Virus record (IMG/VR): IMGVR_UViG_2675903654_000007
Span: 1 to 8,736 of that record
Source of the DNA: a virus
Taxonomy: Duplodnaviria > Heunggongvirae > Uroviricota > Caudoviricetes
Length of the DNA stretch: 8,736 nucleotides
Direction: 5' to 3' (one strand)
Both the position numbers and the translations under genes were made by a program. A model generated the notes under the pieces. The model was not told the origin of the DNA, made no database searches, and was given only the letters and a program-made list of their open reading frames with translations. This document shows, piece by piece, positions 1 to 8,736 of this stretch. The number at the start of each line of letters is the position of its first letter. Within the stretch, counting starts at the first letter, position 1.

Positions 1-336
1 GATGATGCGACGGCGGCGGTAAGCCGGGTCCGCCAGATTCTGCGGATCTTCATCCGGCAGGCGACGCAGGGTCATCTGCGGATTCACCTCATGCTTCGGC
101 TTGACATATCCCGGCGTAAATTCAGAGGTGGAGCCGCCACGGGAACGGATAACCTCACCGGAAACAATCGGCGAAACGTACAGCGCCATGTTTACCAGTC
201 CCGGAATTTGTGAGAGATAGACTTTCTCCGTAGTGAAGGGATAGCTCTCACGGAAAAAGAGACGCAGAAACAGCGGATCAAACTTAAATTTCTGCTCATT
301 TGCCGCCAGCAGCTGGGCGGTTGTGTACATCGACAT
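1..336 (-). CDS. E: Major capsid protein gpE-like, N-terminal 112 codons only (3' end beyond window edge)
   Basis: Reverse-complement translation from ATG at 336 reads MSMYTTAQLLAANEQKFKFDPLFLRLFFRESYPFTTEKVYLSQIPGLVNMALYVSP..., matching lambda gpE N-terminus as recalled; frame runs open to position 1. Confidence 0.88.
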   Translation of the reverse strand, partial: MSMYTTAQLLAANEQKFKFDPLFLRLFFRESYPFTTEKVYLSQIPGLVNMALYVSPIVSGEVIRSRGGSTSEFTPGYVKPKHEVNPQMTLRRLPDEDPQNLADPAYRRRRII

Positions 337-391
337 AAAAAAATCCCGTAAAAAAAGCCGCACAGGCGGCCTTTAGTGATGAAGGGTAAAG

Positions 392-724
392 TTAAACGAT
401 GCTGATTGCCGTTCCGGCAAACGCGGTCCGTTTTTTCGTCTCGTCGCTGGCAGCCTCCGGCCAGAGCACATCCTCATAACGGAACGTGCCGGACTTGTAG
501 AACGTCAGCGTGGTGCTGGTCTGGTCAGCATCAACCGCCAGAATGCCAACGGCAGCACCGTCGGTGGTGCCATCCCACGCAACCAGCTTACGGGTGGAGG
601 TATCCAGCATCAGCGGGGTCATTGCAGGCGCTTTCGCACTCAATCCGCCGGGCGCGGTTGCCGTATGTGCCGGGTCACTGTTGCCCAGCGGCTGGTAATG
701 GGTAAAGGTTTCTTTGCTCGTCAT
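392..724 (-). CDS. D: Head decoration protein gpD (110 aa)
   Basis: ORF track 392..730; the second ATG (724) gives [27 protein letters not shown]..., the lambda gpD N-terminus, and is preceded by AAGGGA 5 nt upstream. Confidence 0.92.
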
Positions 725-733
725 AAACATCCC

Positions 734-1339
734 TTACACTGGTGTGTTCAGCAAATCGTTAACGGCATCAGATGCCGGGTTACCTGCAGCCAGCGGTGCC
801 GGTGCCCCCTGCATCAGACGATCCAGCGCAGTGTCACTGCGCGCCTGTGCACTCTGTGGTGCAGCTGCCAGAATGCGGCGGGCCGTTTCCACGGTCATAC
901 CGGGGGTTTCGGCCAGCACGCGTGCCTGTTCTTCGCGTCCGTGAGCCTCCACACAGTTGAGGATCCCCATAATGCGACTGTTTTCTGCCGCAACCGCTGC
1001 GGTGATCTGCGCGTTCACGTCCGGCTGTGCAGCGCTGGCGTTCTCGCCCTCCGTCGCTTGCACCACGCCAGTAACGTCAGCCTGCGAAGCAGTGGCTGAA
1101 ACAGTTGTTGATTGAGTCTCTTTGGTCATTCGCCCTCCTGAGAGACGGGATTTACGTGCATCCAGTGCATCACGCATGACGGTGATCGCATCGGTACTGT
1201 TAACAAGTTCATCAGCCAGTCCGGCATCAATGGCCTCCTGACCGCTGTACACTGCAGCCTCGGTATCCAGCACAGCCTGCACGGACAGGCCGGTATATGC
1301 CGACACCTTCTGTGCAAACATCCGGCGGGTTGCATCCAT
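734..1339 (-). CDS. Nu3: Scaffolding protein Nu3-like, in-frame internal start within the C reading frame, shares the C stop codon
   Basis: ATG at 1339 (MDATRRMFAQKVSAYTGLSVQAVLD...) is in frame with the C C-terminal ORF ending at 734; the position corresponds to the recalled lambda Nu3 start. Choice of internal start is uncertain. Confidence 0.6.
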   Translation of the reverse strand: MDATRRMFAQKVSAYTGLSVQAVLDTEAAVYSGQEAIDAGLADELVNSTDAITVMRDALDARKSRLSGGRMTKETQSTTVSATASQADVTGVVQATEGENASAAQPDVNAQITAAVAAENSRIMGILNCVEAHGREEQARVLAETPGMTVETARRILAAAPQSAQARSDTALDRLMQGAPAPLAAGNPASDAVNDLLNTPV

Positions 1340-1966
1340 CCGGGACTGCAGTGTTTCCCGGACATCATCCGGTAGATGGCTGTAGGGGTTGCCATCCACC
1401 TTATGGCTGCCGCTGTAAATCAGCGTGATTTCCACGCCCTGTTTCTCCAGTGCAGCGCCGTAATTACTGTGAGCCATCATGACGCCGATGGAGCCTGTCC
1501 GGGCGGTCTGCGTGACCAGACGCCGGGAGGCGGCACTGGCAAGCAGCTGACCTGCACTGCAGTTCATGTCGTTGGCCAGCGCCCATACCGGCTTTATGTC
1601 ACGCATACGGGCGATGATGTCAGCGCAGTCAAATAAGCCTGTTGCAGACGGGCGATAATGCCGTTGTAACCGGTCATCCCCGAATACGGCTGCAGCGCTC
1701 GCGTCCGACTGACCAGCGTGCCGGACACCGGCAGCACGGCGATGCCGTTCATGACCTGATAACTGCGGGCCTGTCGTGGTCCGTCATCATCAACGGATAA
1801 CGCCAGCGCCGCGGGTGCCTCTCCGGCAGTCAGGCTGTCGCCGGATACCGCATCCGTCAGGCGGCTGATCCCAAGCTGGCCTGCAAGCGCACAAAAGAAA
1901 ACCCGCGCATAGGCGGGTTCAAGCATCAGCGGCTCATTAAAGGCCATACTGGCAATATGCGGGAGA

Positions 1967-1986
<20 letters not shown>
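734..1986 (-). pseudogene. C: Prohead protease / minor capsid protein gpC, interrupted by a frameshift (N-terminal 130-codon ORF 1594..1986; C-terminal ORF 734..1606 in another frame)
   Basis: GTG at 1986 with AGGAGG upstream gives VTAELRNLPHIASMAFNEPLMLEPAYARVFF... (gpC N-terminus), which runs into a TAA at 1594 after ...IIARLQQA. The gpC sequence resumes in a different frame at RDIKPVWALANDMNCSAGQ (ORF 734..1606). Start overlaps the end of B by 20 nt as in lambda. Confidence 0.8.
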
Positions 1987-5589
<3,603 letters not shown>

Positions 5590-5615
<26 letters not shown>

Positions 5616-6135
5616 TCAGCAACCCCGATATCAGTTCATCCAGCGCGGCTGCTTTGTTCATGGCTTTGATGATATCCCGTTTCAGGAAATCAACATGTCG
5701 GTTTTCCAGTTCCGGAAAACGCCGCTGCACCGACAGGGGGATCCCGTCGAGAATACTGGCAATTTCACCTGCGATCCGCGACAGCACGAAAGTACAGAAT
5801 GCGGTTTCCACCACTTCAGCGGAGTCTCTGGCATTTTTCAGCTCCTGTGCGTCGGCCTGCGCACGCGTAAGTCGATGGCGTTCGTACTCAATAGTCCCTG
5901 GCTGGAGATCTGTCTCGCTGGCCTGTCGCAGTTCTTCAACCTCCCGGCGCAGCTTTTCGTTCTCAATTTCAGCATCCCTTTCGGCATACCATTTTATGAC
6001 GGCGGCAGAGTCATAAAGCACCTCATTACCCTTCCCACCGCCTCGCAGAACGGGCATTCCCTGCTCCTGCCAGTTCTGAATGGTACGGATACTCGCGCCG
6101 AAAATGTCAGCCAGCTGCTTTTTGTTGACTTCCAT
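5590..6135 (-). CDS. Nu1: Terminase small subunit gpNu1 (181 aa)
   Basis: MEVNKKQLADIFGASIRTIQNWQEQGMPVLRGGGKGNEVLYDSAAVIKWYAERD... matches the lambda Nu1 winged-HTH N-terminus; located immediately downstream of cosB. Confidence 0.95.
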
Positions 6136-6159
6136 TGTTCATTCCACGGACAAAAACAG

Positions 6160-6300
6160 AGAAAGGAAACGACAGAGGCCAAAAAGCCCGTTTTCAGCAC
6201 CTGTCGTTTCCTTTCTTTTCAGGGGGTGTTTTAAATAAAAACATTAAGTTACGAAGAAGAAGAACGGAAACGCCTTAAACCGGAAAATTTTCATAAATAG
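6160..6300 (-). promoter_or_regulatory. cosB-like terminase-binding region with three gpNu1-binding R elements and an AT-rich bend segment between them
   Basis: Three copies of CGTTTCC/GGAAACG between cosN and the Nu1 start (6165..6171, 6205..6211 inverted, 6266..6272), with an AT-rich tract between (6220..6260), the arrangement of lambda cosB R1/R2/R3 plus IHF site. Confidence 0.75.
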
Positions 6301-6312
6301 CGAAAACCCGCG

Positions 6313-6324
6313 AGGTCGCCGCCC
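6313..6324. other. cosN: 12-nt cohesive-end sequence (reverse complement of GGGCGGCGACCT) at the joined genome ends
   Basis: Window + strand reads cgcgAGGTCGCCGCCCcgtagc; the reverse complement is ...TACGGGGCGGCGACCTCGCGGGTTTTCGC, the canonical lambda cos junction. Confidence 0.88.
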
Positions 6325-6346
6325 CGTAGCCTGCCGGATCGCCGGA

Positions 6347-6353
6347 AAGGACC
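6347..6353. other. Probable cosQ element on the right-end side of cosN
   Basis: AAGGACC about 23 to 29 nt from the cosN nick position; the exact sequence and position of lambda cosQ are recalled, not verified. Confidence 0.45.
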
Positions 6354-6561
6354 CAATAAGTGATAATAATTATCATTTATATAAATACCATCACACATCC
6401 CACGTACACCATAAAACCACGACAAATAATCAATTTTGTCCAAGTCATGCATTAATTGATCTGTGTCAACTTAACGTAAAGACATCTTAAGACAATACAA
6501 ATCAGCAGCACTGAACACGGAAAAACACAATGTCATCAAAAAATAAAGCTTCCCAAACCAG

Positions 6562-6702
6562 ATGATTAATCAAATCCATATTGCCCTTGAACGTAAGGGA
6601 TCGGGTAATTTTTCGGCATGGGTTATTGAAGCCTGCAGGAGAAGGCTGGCAACAGATGCAAAGCACCTGCGCCCGGCCAGCATGAAAAATAACGAGAAAT
6701 GA
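6562..6702 (+). CDS. Short ORF (46 aa) with ribbon-helix-helix-like helix-loop-helix, probably an N-terminally truncated remnant
   Basis: MINQIHIALERKGSGNFSAWVIEACRRRLATDAKHLRPASMKNNEK; the G-S-G-N turn between two helices is RHH-like (Arc/MetJ/CopG). In-frame upstream codons hit TAA at 6544..6546 and the upstream ATG at 6530 is out of frame. Below the ORF-track length cutoff. Confidence 0.3.
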   Translation: MINQIHIALERKGSGNFSAWVIEACRRRLATDAKHLRPASMKNNEK

Positions 6703-6834
6703 ACGTTCGGTTACAGGAACCGGTAGCTACTGTCTTCTAACAATATTTCATCTTCATATCCGGCGAAACAAGACTTTACCCTGCAGGGATGTACTGAATA
6801 GCAACAGAGTGATAATTAACTTCTGATAAAATAA

Positions 6835-7161
6835 TCAGGGTGCTGAAGGACTAAAGATAAATGTTTTCTTCACGCCTTTACGCGGCTTGTCCTTCTCAAA
6901 TCGCCATTTTGCCATCGCCTTTACAACCTGCTCATCAAACAGATGGTGCGGCTCTGAACGGATAAACTCAATTCGGGTGACAGTACCATCAGCACCAATA
7001 TCAAACTTCACATCAACCCGTCCCTTTATATAATTTGCCGCGGCATAGGCCGGATATTGTGGTAATGCCTTAACCAACTGTCGAGGCATATCTGTTTTAT
7101 GTTGCGTACAGCCCATAACCAAAGAAGACAACAAAATAATTAACGGAAGATTTCTTTTCAT
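6835..7161 (-). CDS. Small lipoprotein (108 aa) carrying a TonB C-terminal domain, with no TonB N-terminal anchor or proline-rich spacer
   Basis: From ATG 7161: MKRNLPLIILLSSLVMGC (signal peptide with lipobox-like VMGC), then ...LPQYPAYAAANYIKGRVDVKFDIGADGTVTRIEFIRSEPHHLFDEQVVKAMAKWRFEKDKP..., matching the TonB_C signature (E. coli TonB: [55 protein letters not shown]). A second ATG at 7176 lacks an RBS. Confidence 0.75.
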   Translation of the reverse strand: MKRNLPLIILLSSLVMGCTQHKTDMPRQLVKALPQYPAYAAANYIKGRVDVKFDIGADGTVTRIEFIRSEPHHLFDEQVVKAMAKWRFEKDKPRKGVKKTFIFSPSAP

Positions 7162-7181
7162 TCTTATTCCCGGCATAGATA

Positions 7182-7224
7182 AGAATAAGTCTTATTCTAA
7201 CAATGCAGCCCTGTCGGTCATCAA
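7182..7224 (-). promoter_or_regulatory. Candidate sigma70 promoter for the TonB_C lipoprotein gene, with an overlapping perfect palindrome (possible operator)
   Basis: On the - strand: -35 TTGATG (7219..7224), 19-nt spacer, extended -10 TGtTAGAAT (7194..7202). Palindrome AGAATAAG-T-CTTATTCT (7182..7198) overlaps the -10 and start region. Sequence-only prediction. Confidence 0.3.
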
Positions 7225-7836
7225 TCCTCTGCTTAATGGCAATGACAATTATCCGACTTAAATCACAAATCAGACACATGACATAACAGAGTTTGCGAGG
7301 TAACACATCGTCCGGTTTCTTCCACCATCGCACCGGACCAGCGACCATGAGGGGACAACGCCGCGCTCCGTTAACACGGTAAACCCCGGTGTGTATCGTT
7401 TTTGATTATCCCCGCACACTCGCGCAGAGGAGTCTCCCTCTCGGGCTGTGGTCTCTGTTGATGCGGGAATACGGCGACGATACAGTGCATAGTTATGTCA
7501 GGCTAAAATGCCTTTATCAAATCTGGGTAACGCAATCTGCCATTGTTGGCTCCGGTTGTGGTGATGATGTCAAGCAAGCCCATCTTGACTATCTCAACTA
7601 GTCGATTCATGACATATGTCACATTTATACCAACCAGATCATTGCGTTGAGTTTACAACTCAATAATTCTTGGTTGGACGTCAAGTTTTGACGGTATTCG
7701 GGTGGCAGTTGATAGCAATCTTGGAACCGTCCACCTAATAGCTGCTTGTGTGGCGTTTAAATTGTGGAGTGCTCGCAACAGAACTTTTCTTTCTTGTTTG
7801 CGAGCGATGTTTAGCAACTTTTAAGAGAGTTAAGTC

Positions 7837-8067
7837 ATGGAGTTTTTGAAAGAGCATCATTTGCCTTCAATAATTTTTGGAATTTTTTCCGCCATTTTTT
7901 GGATTATTTCATGTTTTGCATCTTCCAAAGAACACCCACCAAAAACGGAACAAGGCAGTTTCTCATCACTGGGTTGTTTTAAAGCCATTGAAATACAAAG
8001 TAAATGGAATAAACGGGCTGCTTTTTGCGCAGCGTTAGCTGTTCTTGCTCAAGTATTTAGCTTTTAG
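7837..8067 (+). CDS. Small hydrophobic protein (76 aa), two predicted membrane segments or a lipoprotein signal; accessory gene in the position of lambda bor
   Basis: ATG at 7837 preceded by AGAGAG about 9 nt upstream. MEFLKEHHLPSIIFGIFSAIFWIISCFASSKEHPPKTEQGSFSSLGCFKAIEIQSKWNKRAAFCAALAVLAQVFSF has an N-terminal hydrophobic stretch ending in IISC (lipobox-like), a basic loop and a hydrophobic C-terminus. AT-rich, opposite strand to the late genes, followed by a hairpin terminator. No similarity to Bor recognised. Confidence 0.6.
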   Translation: MEFLKEHHLPSIIFGIFSAIFWIISCFASSKEHPPKTEQGSFSSLGCFKAIEIQSKWNKRAAFCAALAVLAQVFSF

Positions 8068-8084
8068 TTTCAAAAGTGTAAATC

Positions 8085-8120
8085 AGAACCACTCGTATAG
8101 CGGGTGGTTCTCTGTTTTAT
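8085..8120 (+). terminator. Rho-independent terminator downstream of the 76-aa ORF
   Basis: AGAACCACTCG (8085..8095) pairs with CGGGTGGTTCT (8101..8111) around loop TATAG, followed by CTGTTTTATT. Confidence 0.55.
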
Positions 8121-8183
8121 TCGTGTTGCGACTAAAACTAACTAAAATCACGCATATAAAAGATAATGGGAAAATTATCGCTA

Positions 8184-8621
8184 TCATCGAAGGCATTGCG
8201 TCCTAATGTACTCCTGCAAGTAGTTAACCTGCGCGGTTATCCTGTCGATTCCACTTCGGAGACGGTAATAATTGAGTTCAGCATCTGCTGTAAGTCCTGG
8301 GGTTTCTCCATTGCCCATGCCGCTGGCTCCGGTCGTTGACTTTGCACAGGTGGCGGCGACTTGCAGGCGCTTACGCCCAGCAGAAACATCAGCACGGAGA
8401 CTTTCGATAGTCGCATTAGCATCAGCAAGCTCCTTTGTGTATCTGGCGTCAAGTTCTGCTACATCACGTTGCCGCTTCTGCATATCAGCGATGATGGATG
8501 TGGCTTTATCGCGCTGCTCTTTGTAGGCGATGGCGTTATCACGGTAATGATTAACAGCCCATGAAAGGCAGACGATGAGGCAGATGACCAGAACGTAGAT
8601 AATCGCGGTTACTCTGCTCAT
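8184..8621 (-). CDS. Rz: Spanin inner-membrane subunit Rz (i-spanin)
   Basis: From ATG 8621: [39 protein letters not shown]...[23 protein letters not shown]..., an N-terminal TM helix plus coiled coil, similar to lambda Rz. The ATG overlaps the endolysin stop (ATGA). The track start at 8633 is a GTG. Confidence 0.85.
8237..8422 (-). CDS. Rz1: Spanin outer-membrane lipoprotein subunit Rz1 (o-spanin), embedded in the +1 frame of Rz
   Basis: ATG at 8422 preceded by AAGGAG 7 nt upstream; [20 protein letters not shown] (lipobox VSAC) then proline-rich [22 protein letters not shown], the lambda Rz1 architecture, entirely inside Rz. An alternative ATG lies at 8416. Confidence 0.7.
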
Positions 8622-8736
8622 TGTTGCCCCCACAAACAGACTTCACGCTCAATCTCACGGCGAGTCATCAGCCCTTTCCATTGCTTACCGCCAGCGTATG
8701 TCCAGCGCCGTAGCTGATCACATGCGCCTTTGATAT
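8618..8736 (-). CDS. R: Endolysin, lysozyme type (not the lambda transglycosylase type), C-terminal 38 codons only
   Basis: Reverse-complement translation ends ...[36 protein letters not shown], which I recognise as the C-terminus of phage 21 / E. coli RrrD-type lysozymes; lambda R ends differently. 5' end outside window. Confidence 0.8.

Follow-up and report, generated by a model that had tools for sequence, protein, structure and literature searches.

The locus considered here raises the question of what occupies 675 base pairs (bp) of DNA that hold no intact gene, at positions 7162-7836 of an 8,736-nucleotide (nt) stretch (positions 1 to 8,736 of IMG/VR virus record IMGVR_UViG_2675903654_000007, hereafter the window), between two accessory genes of a lambdoid prophage whose late operon runs on the minus strand. 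A sequence-only reading of the window had described this gap as apparently non-coding and rich in palindromes, which it proposed as operators for divergent promoters, and had likened a segment at roughly 7310-7490 to the sequence upstream of bor in lambda, taking this for a regulatory region or a small RNA (sRNA). Our analysis leaves the named palindromes unsupported as operators and identifies the lambda-like segment as a discrete, widespread and unannotated non-coding module. Followed in the late direction, the anatomy of the gap is almost certainly that of a terS relic, a rha relic, this ~180-nt module and the promoter and 5' untranslated region (5'UTR) of a TonB-like lipoprotein gene. That recombination pieced this gap together, in the 'moron' zone that separates the lysis cassette (Rz) from the packaging genes (Nu1), and that the module works there in the manner proposed below, is as a joint proposition close to an even call, with a slight lean towards doubt.

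A conserved non-coding module between lysis and packaging genes

The likeness to lambda is real when judged by nucleotide alignment. By blastn, window positions 7374-7484 match lambda 46873-46981 at 78% identity, and a covariance model of the module (R1) scores 134 bits in lambda, 138 in DLP12, 211 in the window and 213 in Sakai prophage Sp10; R1 was built in part from window sequence, the independent support being that of blastn, at 78-93% identity. The model found the module in all 100 loci searched, with 134-219 bits in 98 of the other 99 (lambda, DLP12 and IMG/VR contigs among them), the exception being a truncated copy on an iss plasmid (L141) that scores 79 bits; a motif scan of IMG/VR returned 120 loci. 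Further carriers are BP-4795, the 933W-type Shiga toxin 2 (Stx2) phages, Stx1a phages, phage 434 and ES18, and the module is present in every Stx phage type examined. It matches 398 phage records, 385 of them over at least 80% of its length, whilst any part of an 801-bp query containing it finds matches in 1912 of 5426 complete Escherichia coli genomes, at a median of two and up to nine places in each. Most records, including those of lambda and DLP12, leave the module unannotated, and a literature search on borD/ybcV sRNAs, EcOnc names and lambda late-transcript processing returned nothing on it, in a search that mostly did not cover subscription journals and may have missed older lambda work.

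The lambda copy (46868-47033) lies between the lambdap78 stop and the bor ATG, and the DLP12 copy of E. coli K-12 (NC_000913.3, 579009-579175) between borD and ybcV. Both share with the window copy full-length homology, a position after the lysis and before the packaging genes, and orientation relative to the late operon. They differ in their flanks, which consist of two leftward morons (lambdap78/ybcV and bor), whereas the window's module is flanked by the rha relic and the TonB-like gene; in the lambda type, moreover, the variable middle is shorter (166-167 nt) and helix 2 is Watson-Crick throughout. In all flank classes surveyed, the module sits with the end of the lysis cassette on one side and with packaging genes or morons on the other. 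Its lysis-side neighbour is Rz, or Rz and then bor, rha or ant; the opposite neighbours comprise Nu1, 933W-type, HNH-linked or other terminases, DUF3950, ybcV and a TonB-like gene, so that at least 15 left types and at least 12 right types occur in more than 40 combinations. One IMG/VR contig (L099) carries a copy that is broken after its first ~50 nt by an IS3-family element, with a 295-amino-acid (aa) transposase open reading frame (ORF).

Part of the module has also travelled beyond phages. On conjugative IncF plasmids (more than 500), the hairpin half (window 7390-7484) is kept at ~78% identity, ~170 nt upstream of iss, as exemplified by positions 2486-2601 of p13P460A-2 (the L141 copy above), where its orientation is that found upstream of bor in lambda. 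We rejected these plasmid matches as an independent clue, since they represent the lambda-derived iss locus, iss being the plasmid copy of bor.

Nucleotide conservation without a conserved frame, as the sequence-only reading had proposed for this segment, is what we observe: copies are 164-183 nt long, their internal gap runs mostly have lengths not divisible by three, and any given frame is open in 13 of 55 variants at most. A protein gene within the module was rejected on this ground, the ORFs annotated in a few records (e.g. Stx2 II ORF C87) not being conserved. The divergence of the module is 0.175, as against 0.27 at fourfold-degenerate sites of the neighbouring Rz, in a comparison blurred by mosaicism.

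A strand-neutral repeat search identified nested inverted repeats at 7392-7399/7477-7484 and 7407-7416/7462-7471 (I1 and I5), from which the long imperfect hairpin listed in Table 1 is derived; in lambda the arms of helix 2 read TATTCCCGG and CCGGGAATA. By RNAalifold, the minus (late-sense) strand has a consensus energy of -30 to -35 kcal/mol and the plus strand one of -10 kcal/mol, and across 55 distinct sequences 97.2% of pairing cells are satisfied in the late sense versus 87.1% for the mirrored structure, with helices 1 and 2 paired in 98.2% and 99.6%, respectively. Compensatory double changes are found at six pairs (a count reached in 0 of 500 shuffles, slid controls giving 0-3), e.g. from CCCGCA/TGCGGG to CCCGGA/TCCGGG in the lambda type. 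Within helices 1-2, whose definition is strand-neutral, there are 141 G.U cells and a single A.C cell (seven positions versus one); mutational strand bias as the source of G.U was considered and rejected, unpaired columns giving 11 C/T and 11 A/G. The hairpin (~100 nt) is moreover the late-sense minimum-energy fold in the window, lambda and Sakai Sp10 (z = -3.5, -2.9 and -2.2). As modelled, the better pairing of the hairpin on the late-sense strand is suggestive.

Possible roles of the module

It is quite possible, if short of probable, that the module is a cis-acting structured RNA in the late transcript. As to what such an RNA might do, we tentatively propose an unrecognised cis-acting late-operon RNA element of E. 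coli lambdoid phages, lambda included, that would provide a processing, stability or anti-termination-related signal at the lysis/packaging boundary. The module would then act in cis as RNA within the Q-antiterminated late transcript, folding into the ~93-nt imperfect hairpin (~18 bp, with its internal loop) followed by a second domain; the hairpin would serve as a processing or stability determinant, e.g. as the site of a double-strand-specific RNase, and processing would separate the messenger RNA (mRNA) of the lysis cassette from the downstream packaging and head mRNA. A boundary role of this kind would explain why the module keeps its place at the junction despite gene swaps on either side. 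Lambda possesses RNase III-processed hairpins in sib and the N-leader, which the module resembles by shape alone (a long imperfect hairpin, ~18 bp and interrupted by an internal loop, within a polycistronic phage transcript), the sequences being unrelated. Were the module an RNA in the late transcript, it would represent a new regulatory layer for the expression of lysis and packaging genes, and in Stx phages the transcript on which it acts would be the Q-dependent one that includes stx.

Published transcript ends in K-12 bear on the DLP12 copy. Adams et al. 2021 (PMC7815308, supplementary file 2) list a plus-strand, Rho-dependent 3' end at 579345, with reads upstream; in the late-sense direction it comes 170 nt after the DLP12 module, and the reads up to this end imply that the late-sense strand at DLP12 is transcribed without induction. 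The transcript concerned is antisense to ybcV. The published Term-seq and bicyclomycin data also contain minus-strand ends antisense to rzpD, at 578444 (Term-seq list) and 578204 (Rho-dependent list), which we read as borD read-through; with ends on both strands, the DLP12 junction region is transcribed both ways in uninduced cells. The K-12 Term-seq list has no 3' end in 5789xx-5792xx on either strand.

Conventional signals were also sought in the module. An invariant late-sense GATAAT was rejected as a promoter, lacking both a -35 element and TG, and consensus sites for sigma-E, sigma-32 and sigma-54 were rejected for misfitting spacing (all read from the alignment); a promoter scan yielded only a weak 9/12 site on the plus strand. 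No intrinsic terminator was found in 7310-7489 on either strand, in a scan of 6700-8250 for a G+C-rich stem with a T-run within 0-2 nt. The bor promoter or its PhoP box was likewise rejected as the meaning of the module, as the promoter motif published for borD falls in the interval from the borD ATG to the module, and most copies have no bor nearby.

A number of observations weigh against a functional RNA in the late transcript. Counted by position, G.U and A.C stand at 14 versus 7 overall (p = 0.19) and at 7 versus 1 in helices 1-2 (p about 0.07), and the strand preference derives from few independent events, its cells being related by descent. Further pair types show no excess over shuffles (67 and 178 of 500), whole 201-nt folds are ordinary on both strands (z = -1.2 and -1.0), and in lambda the opposite strand folds better still (z = -4.1). 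Conservation is no higher in the stems than in the loops and the long single-stranded stretches, a pattern that fits sequence-specific recognition or simply recent common descent. The module has a narrow range: when 185,579 genomes, one per species, were scanned with a strict two-motif pattern, true copies came only from two E. coli records and two contigs of less than 500 bp, the remaining matches being due to chance, and the two short contigs, labelled Modestobacter and Thiomicrorhabdus, we take to be contaminants. Given this narrow range, the diversity of the module is low and the element may be young. The presence of the hairpin half on plasmids that have no late operon indicates that it can persist by hitch-hiking, and the involvement of RNase III is pure analogy.

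The narrow host range and low diversity, the marginal covariation by position, the persistence beside iss on plasmids and the IS3-family insertion in the L099 copy are also what favours a module with no function of its own, i.e. junction homology left by an old bor-type moron or an untranslated gene end, which would have spread recently in E. coli lambdoid phages and been kept by lysis/packaging recombination through it, its structure being an inherited inverted repeat. Mosaic breakpoints that match the module ends point the same way, as does the other travelling junk of this gap, namely the relics of terS and rha that it has in common with P22 and Stx1a phages. The true relics in the gap are, however, truncated and full of stops, whereas the module, amid >40 flank combinations, has stayed whole (164-183 nt) at almost every one of more than 100 loci, diverges less than the fourfold-degenerate sites of Rz, and has single-sided changes in its two main helices that are nearly all G.U on one strand; we therefore regard an origin as junction homology alone as conceivable but rather doubtful. 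If it were correct, the module would neatly exemplify a recombination linker placed between phage modules. An action on the window's plus strand, the moron strand expressed in the lysogen, would make the module either a terminator or insulator that keeps antisense transcription from ybcV, DUF3950 or HnrS from running into the lysis genes, or an upstream element of the bor/iss promoter. Plus-strand units do end just before it (the DUF3950 stop 3-4 nt, the ybcV stop 9 nt and the HnrS terminator ~20 nt upstream), lambda, DLP12, 933W-type phages and IncF plasmids all have it in one orientation, 120-170 nt upstream of bor/iss, a stem GCACCGG...CCGGTGT followed by the U-rich tract AUCGUUUUUGAUUAU can be read from the sequence, and the strong fold of lambda noted above (z = -4.1) is that of the plus-equivalent strand. 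Nevertheless, the consensus fold on this strand is weak (-10 kcal/mol), 20% of helix 2 cells would be A.C mismatches, and the U-tract begins 5-6 nt past the stem, where the terminator scan was empty; K-12 Term-seq ends are absent from 5789xx-5792xx on either strand, and the mapped borD promoter motif is outside the module. At over half of the loci surveyed, bor is missing beside the module, and in the window the left neighbour is divergent, leaving nothing to terminate. A plus-strand role accordingly appears unlikely.

A site acting at the level of DNA, whether a platform for protein binding or a strand-specific single-stranded DNA (ssDNA) hairpin used in rolling-circle replication or packaging, would account for the long invariant blocks outside the helices (TAATCAAAAACGAT, GGTGGAAGAAACC and AGTGTGCGG) and for a short central palindrome that, as read from the alignment, co-varies yet stays palindromic (GGAGTCTCC, GGAATTCC and GAAGTTC); G.T pairs are tolerated in DNA hairpins, so that the strand bias is compatible with ssDNA. 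We consider this very improbable all the same, as no known motif was recognised and no candidate binding protein is consistently linked to the module, and as a packaging site is made less likely by the unrelated packaging systems that occur beside the module (Nu1/cos, 933W-type, HNH-associated and Terminase_2-type terminases); in lambda, the module is ~1.5 kb from cos.

Gene relics, a transcribed leader and palindromes

The remainder of the gap is for the most part ordinary, being made up of fragments of dead genes and promoter regions of morons, such as lambdoid mosaics accumulate (Table 1). Window positions 7100-7900 match E. coli Z1323CEC0019 at 100% identity and enteropathogenic E. coli (EPEC) E2348/69 at 99.8%, lying in the latter inside prophage PP5, where the gap corresponds to NC_011601 1294879-1295553; in this near-identical copy RefSeq annotates zero genes between the TonB-family gene and the 76-aa gene. 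By megablast and blastn the region is a mosaic of two homology blocks, of which 7100-7541 matches Stx1a-type phages, e.g. Lys8385Vzw, at 92-96% identity, extending there from the TonB gene into the 3' end of rha, and 7536-7797 matches P22. The earlier description of the gap as non-coding holds in that nothing intact was found, although in ~320 of its 675 bp (7498-~7815) the remains of two protein genes can be recognised; it is for this part only that a conserved protein-coding frame emerges, and it does so through pseudogenes, not sequencing error. The ORFs themselves are indeed unconvincing, but the list on which that judgement was based was incomplete, frames of 83, 54, 49, 41 and 40 aa overlapping the gap in addition to the 70-aa frame with a GTG start.

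Table 1. Positions of the features discussed, in window coordinates unless another record is named
Feature	Position	Strand	Basis or remark
Large terminase	3690-5615	minus (late operon)	
Nu1	5590-6135	minus (late operon)	Pfam Phage_Nu1
TonB_C-domain lipoprotein gene (TonB-like)	6835-7161	minus	Pfam TonB_C, E = 2.4e-15
Putative promoter/5'UTR region upstream of the TonB-like lipoprotein gene	7162-7310	minus	predicted promoter function
Conserved non-coding module, ~180 nt	7310-7489	minus (late-operon sense)	covariance model R1, blastn
Long imperfect hairpin, ~93 nt: 7-bp helix, internal loop, 10-11-bp helix (~18 bp)	7392-7484	minus	nested inverted repeats
rha relic, last 16 codons and stop	7498-7548	minus	translation match to Rha C-terminus
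terS relic, decayed 5' half of a Terminase_2 small-terminase gene	7549-~7815	minus	tblastn; common to P22
Palindrome TGACATATGTCA and hairpin TTGAGTT-TAC-AACTCAA, in the terS relic	7610-7621 and 7647-7663		codons equivalent to ...VTYVM... and ...IEL*TQ...
Transcribed leader of the 76-aa gene, with 8-bp inverted repeat	7676-7836	plus	published RIL-seq
76-aa hypothetical membrane-protein gene	7837-8067	plus	RefSeq WP_157778920.1
Rz	8184-8633	minus (late operon)	Pfam Phage_lysis
HnrS	L139 (Sakai Sp10, NC_002695.2) ~5944-6009	minus	
HnrS	L005 (BP-4795) 2438-2463		

The first of these relics is the end of rha. Its minus-strand translation, QQWQIALPRFDKGILA followed by a stop, matches the Rha C-terminus of phage Lys8385Vzw, QQGQIALPGFDKGISA followed by a stop, and nucleotide homology to that phage extends to window 7541; the gene is far from full-length, the surviving codons being fused at 7548 to the terS relic. 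The entry to the latter was a weak match within the small-terminase gene of Cronobacter phage phiES15. With the TerS protein of phiES15 as query (itself Pfam Terminase_2, PF03592, E = 4e-41), tblastn matches the minus strand of the window at E = 7e-17, with 46% identity over aa 17-98 and an in-frame stop; residues 1-16 are recognisable past a local N-terminal frameshift, and the C-terminal ~80 residues are gone. The in-frame stop, the frameshift and the missing C-terminus together identify this stretch as a pseudogene relic, and the functional small terminase of the window prophage is Nu1, as assigned by Pfam.

The same decayed Terminase_2 fragment is present in P22, in the stretch between rha/orf25 and orf80, at 84% identity to window 7536-7797, and both relics contain stops and frameshifts. 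In the P22-pbi sequence (AF527608, locus 716-981, upstream of orf80), tblastn covers TerS residues 1-42 and 36-90 in two frames, with stops. The working small terminase of P22 is gp3, and the relic accounts for a P22 stretch that has long gone unannotated. The two phages differ in that the P22 relic is followed by orf80 (DUF2560), whereas that of the window is fused to the rha relic and the module, the latter being absent from P22 by covariance model search; unlike in P22, moreover, the opposite strand of the window relic is the leader of the 76-aa gene.

Evidence for this leader comes from published RIL-seq (sequencing of ligated, interacting RNAs) in EPEC (Pearl Mizrahi et al. 2021, PMC8550237), whose Table S3 contains, for the minus strand of NC_011601, the entry 'E2348C_1253.E2348C_1251.IGR' (1294775-1295039 and 1294679-1294961), with 25 and 15 chimeras joining it to the sRNA MgrR (p = 1.8e-9). 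Mapped onto the window, these coordinates become 7676-7940 and 7754-8036 on the plus strand. The data show that the 76-aa gene is transcribed in the lysogen, and that its leader meets the PhoP-dependent sRNA MgrR on Hfq; the leader begins at or upstream of ~7676, its exact start being deduced from these coordinates. To judge from the sequence, a -10-like AATAAT at 7662-7667, overlapping the hairpin at 7647-7663, would fit a start at ~7676, and the terS relic would then appear to supply the promoter of the 76-aa gene too. The best predicted duplex with MgrR, at 7743-7756 (-16 to -20 kcal/mol), falls within ~2 standard deviations of shuffles, and we accordingly claim no pairing site.

At the other end of the gap, upstream of the TonB-like gene, a sigma-70-like site (ATGACC-16-TAGAAT, with TG) is found on the minus strand at 7221->7194. 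The flanking genes are divergent, as had been stated, and both must be served from the gap, the one by this promoter-like site and the other by the plus-strand RIL-seq transcript that runs from ~7676 into the 76-aa ORF. Nested 8-bp inverted repeats at 7160-7198 (ATTCTTAT/ATAAGAAT and AGAATAAG/CTTATTCT) overlap the predicted -10 of the TonB-like gene, and show a weak likeness to a Fur box (a 6-6-1-6 hexamer layout, 13/19 at 7178, local shuffle p ~0.06). The 7162-7310 region, the TonB gene and the module are inherited as one block, with 92-96% identity, in Stx1a phages.

The palindromes named by the sequence-only reading all exist where it placed them, namely TGACATATGTCA at 7610-7621, TTGAGTT-TAC-AACTCAA at 7647-7663, and the 8-bp inverted repeat around 7779-7797, whose arms are GCTCGCAA (7771-7778) and TTGCGAGC (7798-7805). 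As operators, though, they find no support, since all three lie inside the decayed terS fragment and the first two are broken in P22, where the homologous relic has TGACATGTGTCA and TTAAGTTTACAGAACAA at these sites. Lying over former terS codons and imperfect in P22, these two are best read as chance features of decaying coding DNA, a reading that removes the false lead of palindromic operators. Chance levels, obtained from 300 dinucleotide shuffles of the gap, agree for the named sites, in that a perfect 12-bp palindrome occurs in 15% of shuffles and at least two hairpins with 7-bp stems and loops of 3-8 nt in 5%. The gap is palindrome-rich to the extent that short inverted repeats are enriched as a class, with seven stems of at least 7 bp within 30 nt against an expected 1.3 +/- 1.4 (0 of 300 shuffles, overlapping repeats being counted repeatedly), but the named examples are individually near chance, and several of the enriched repeats fall elsewhere, at 7160-7198 or in the conserved module. 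Part of the symmetry of the GCTCGCAA/TTGCGAGC repeat (7771-7805) is due to 4 nt inserted in the terS relic as compared with P22. Situated in the leader, with ~30 nt between it and the 76-aa start codon, this repeat could affect translation.

Known RNAs and neighbouring genes

An sRNA in the gap, the other possibility raised by the sequence-only reading, was neither known nor detected. A scan with Rfam 15 gave no match in 7162-7836 at E<=1 (AsxR, AgvB, STnc100, Esr41, IsrK and phage elements included), the same scan detecting AgvB and STnc100 in Sakai Sp10, and ARAGORN found no transfer RNA or transfer-messenger RNA in the gap. None of the sRNAs PasA-D of EPEC E2348/69 lies there; PasC, the only one in PP5, is at 1290832-1290909, ~4 kb away. 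HnrS (EcOnc10/11/12), a 66-nt Hfq-dependent prophage sRNA that represses hha and has identical copies in Sakai Sp9, Sp10 and Sp12 (Poudyal et al., PLoS Pathog 2026, PMC13502914), resembles the module in being encoded in the lysis-to-packaging interval, its terminator ending ~20 nt from the module in BP-4795 and Sakai Sp10, but differs in its sequence and in being on the opposite strand, outside the module. It is present in five of 140 loci only, all of the BP-4795 type, and the pattern CTTCTACCCAATCAGTACATTACTGC, used to look for this sRNA with its seed complementary to mazF/hha and its intrinsic terminator, has no match in the window with up to three mismatches. The strong Hfq peak EcOnc11, obtained by CRAC, in which cross-linking is followed by cDNA analysis, in enterohaemorrhagic E. 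coli (EHEC; Tree et al. 2014), where EcOnc10/11/12 form the strongest 'orphan' Hfq site in this neighbourhood, was rejected as lying inside the module, as this peak is HnrS, beside it. Coordinates in Table S2 of Tree et al. 2014 are ~140 nt lower than those of NC_002695.2, as checked by the Rfam match to AgvB at L139 921-982.

The two genes bordering the gap invite comparison with the morons of lambdoid late regions, reportedly represented by bor and lom. The TonB-like and 76-aa genes are likewise small accessory genes inside the late operon, and the 76-aa gene, whose protein has no match to a Pfam family in a Pfam scan, further resembles morons in being transcribed in the lysogen and in having its own terminator, at 8085-8111 (a 12-bp stem and T-run). 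The TonB-like gene differs in running in the same direction as the late operon, and the promoters of both genes are predicted ones.

Further towards the packaging genes, a long near-perfect hairpin at 6157-6219, immediately upstream of Nu1, has a chance-level Rfam match to mir-578 (E = 0.38); we take it to be the counterpart of the lambda left-end hairpin upstream of Nu1, in the cosB region. The best Fur-box-like sequence of the window, ATAAGTGATAATAATTATCATTTAT (up to 15/19), is at 6356-6380, within the spacer near cos that separates Nu1 from a small DUF3950 (YlcI-like) gene. The latter (6562-6702, plus, i.e. the anti-late strand) accompanies Nu1-type packaging modules in many loci, and in some phages its stop codon is 3-4 nt from the 180-nt module; judged by eye, its protein sequence has the look of a ribbon-helix-helix DNA-binding protein.

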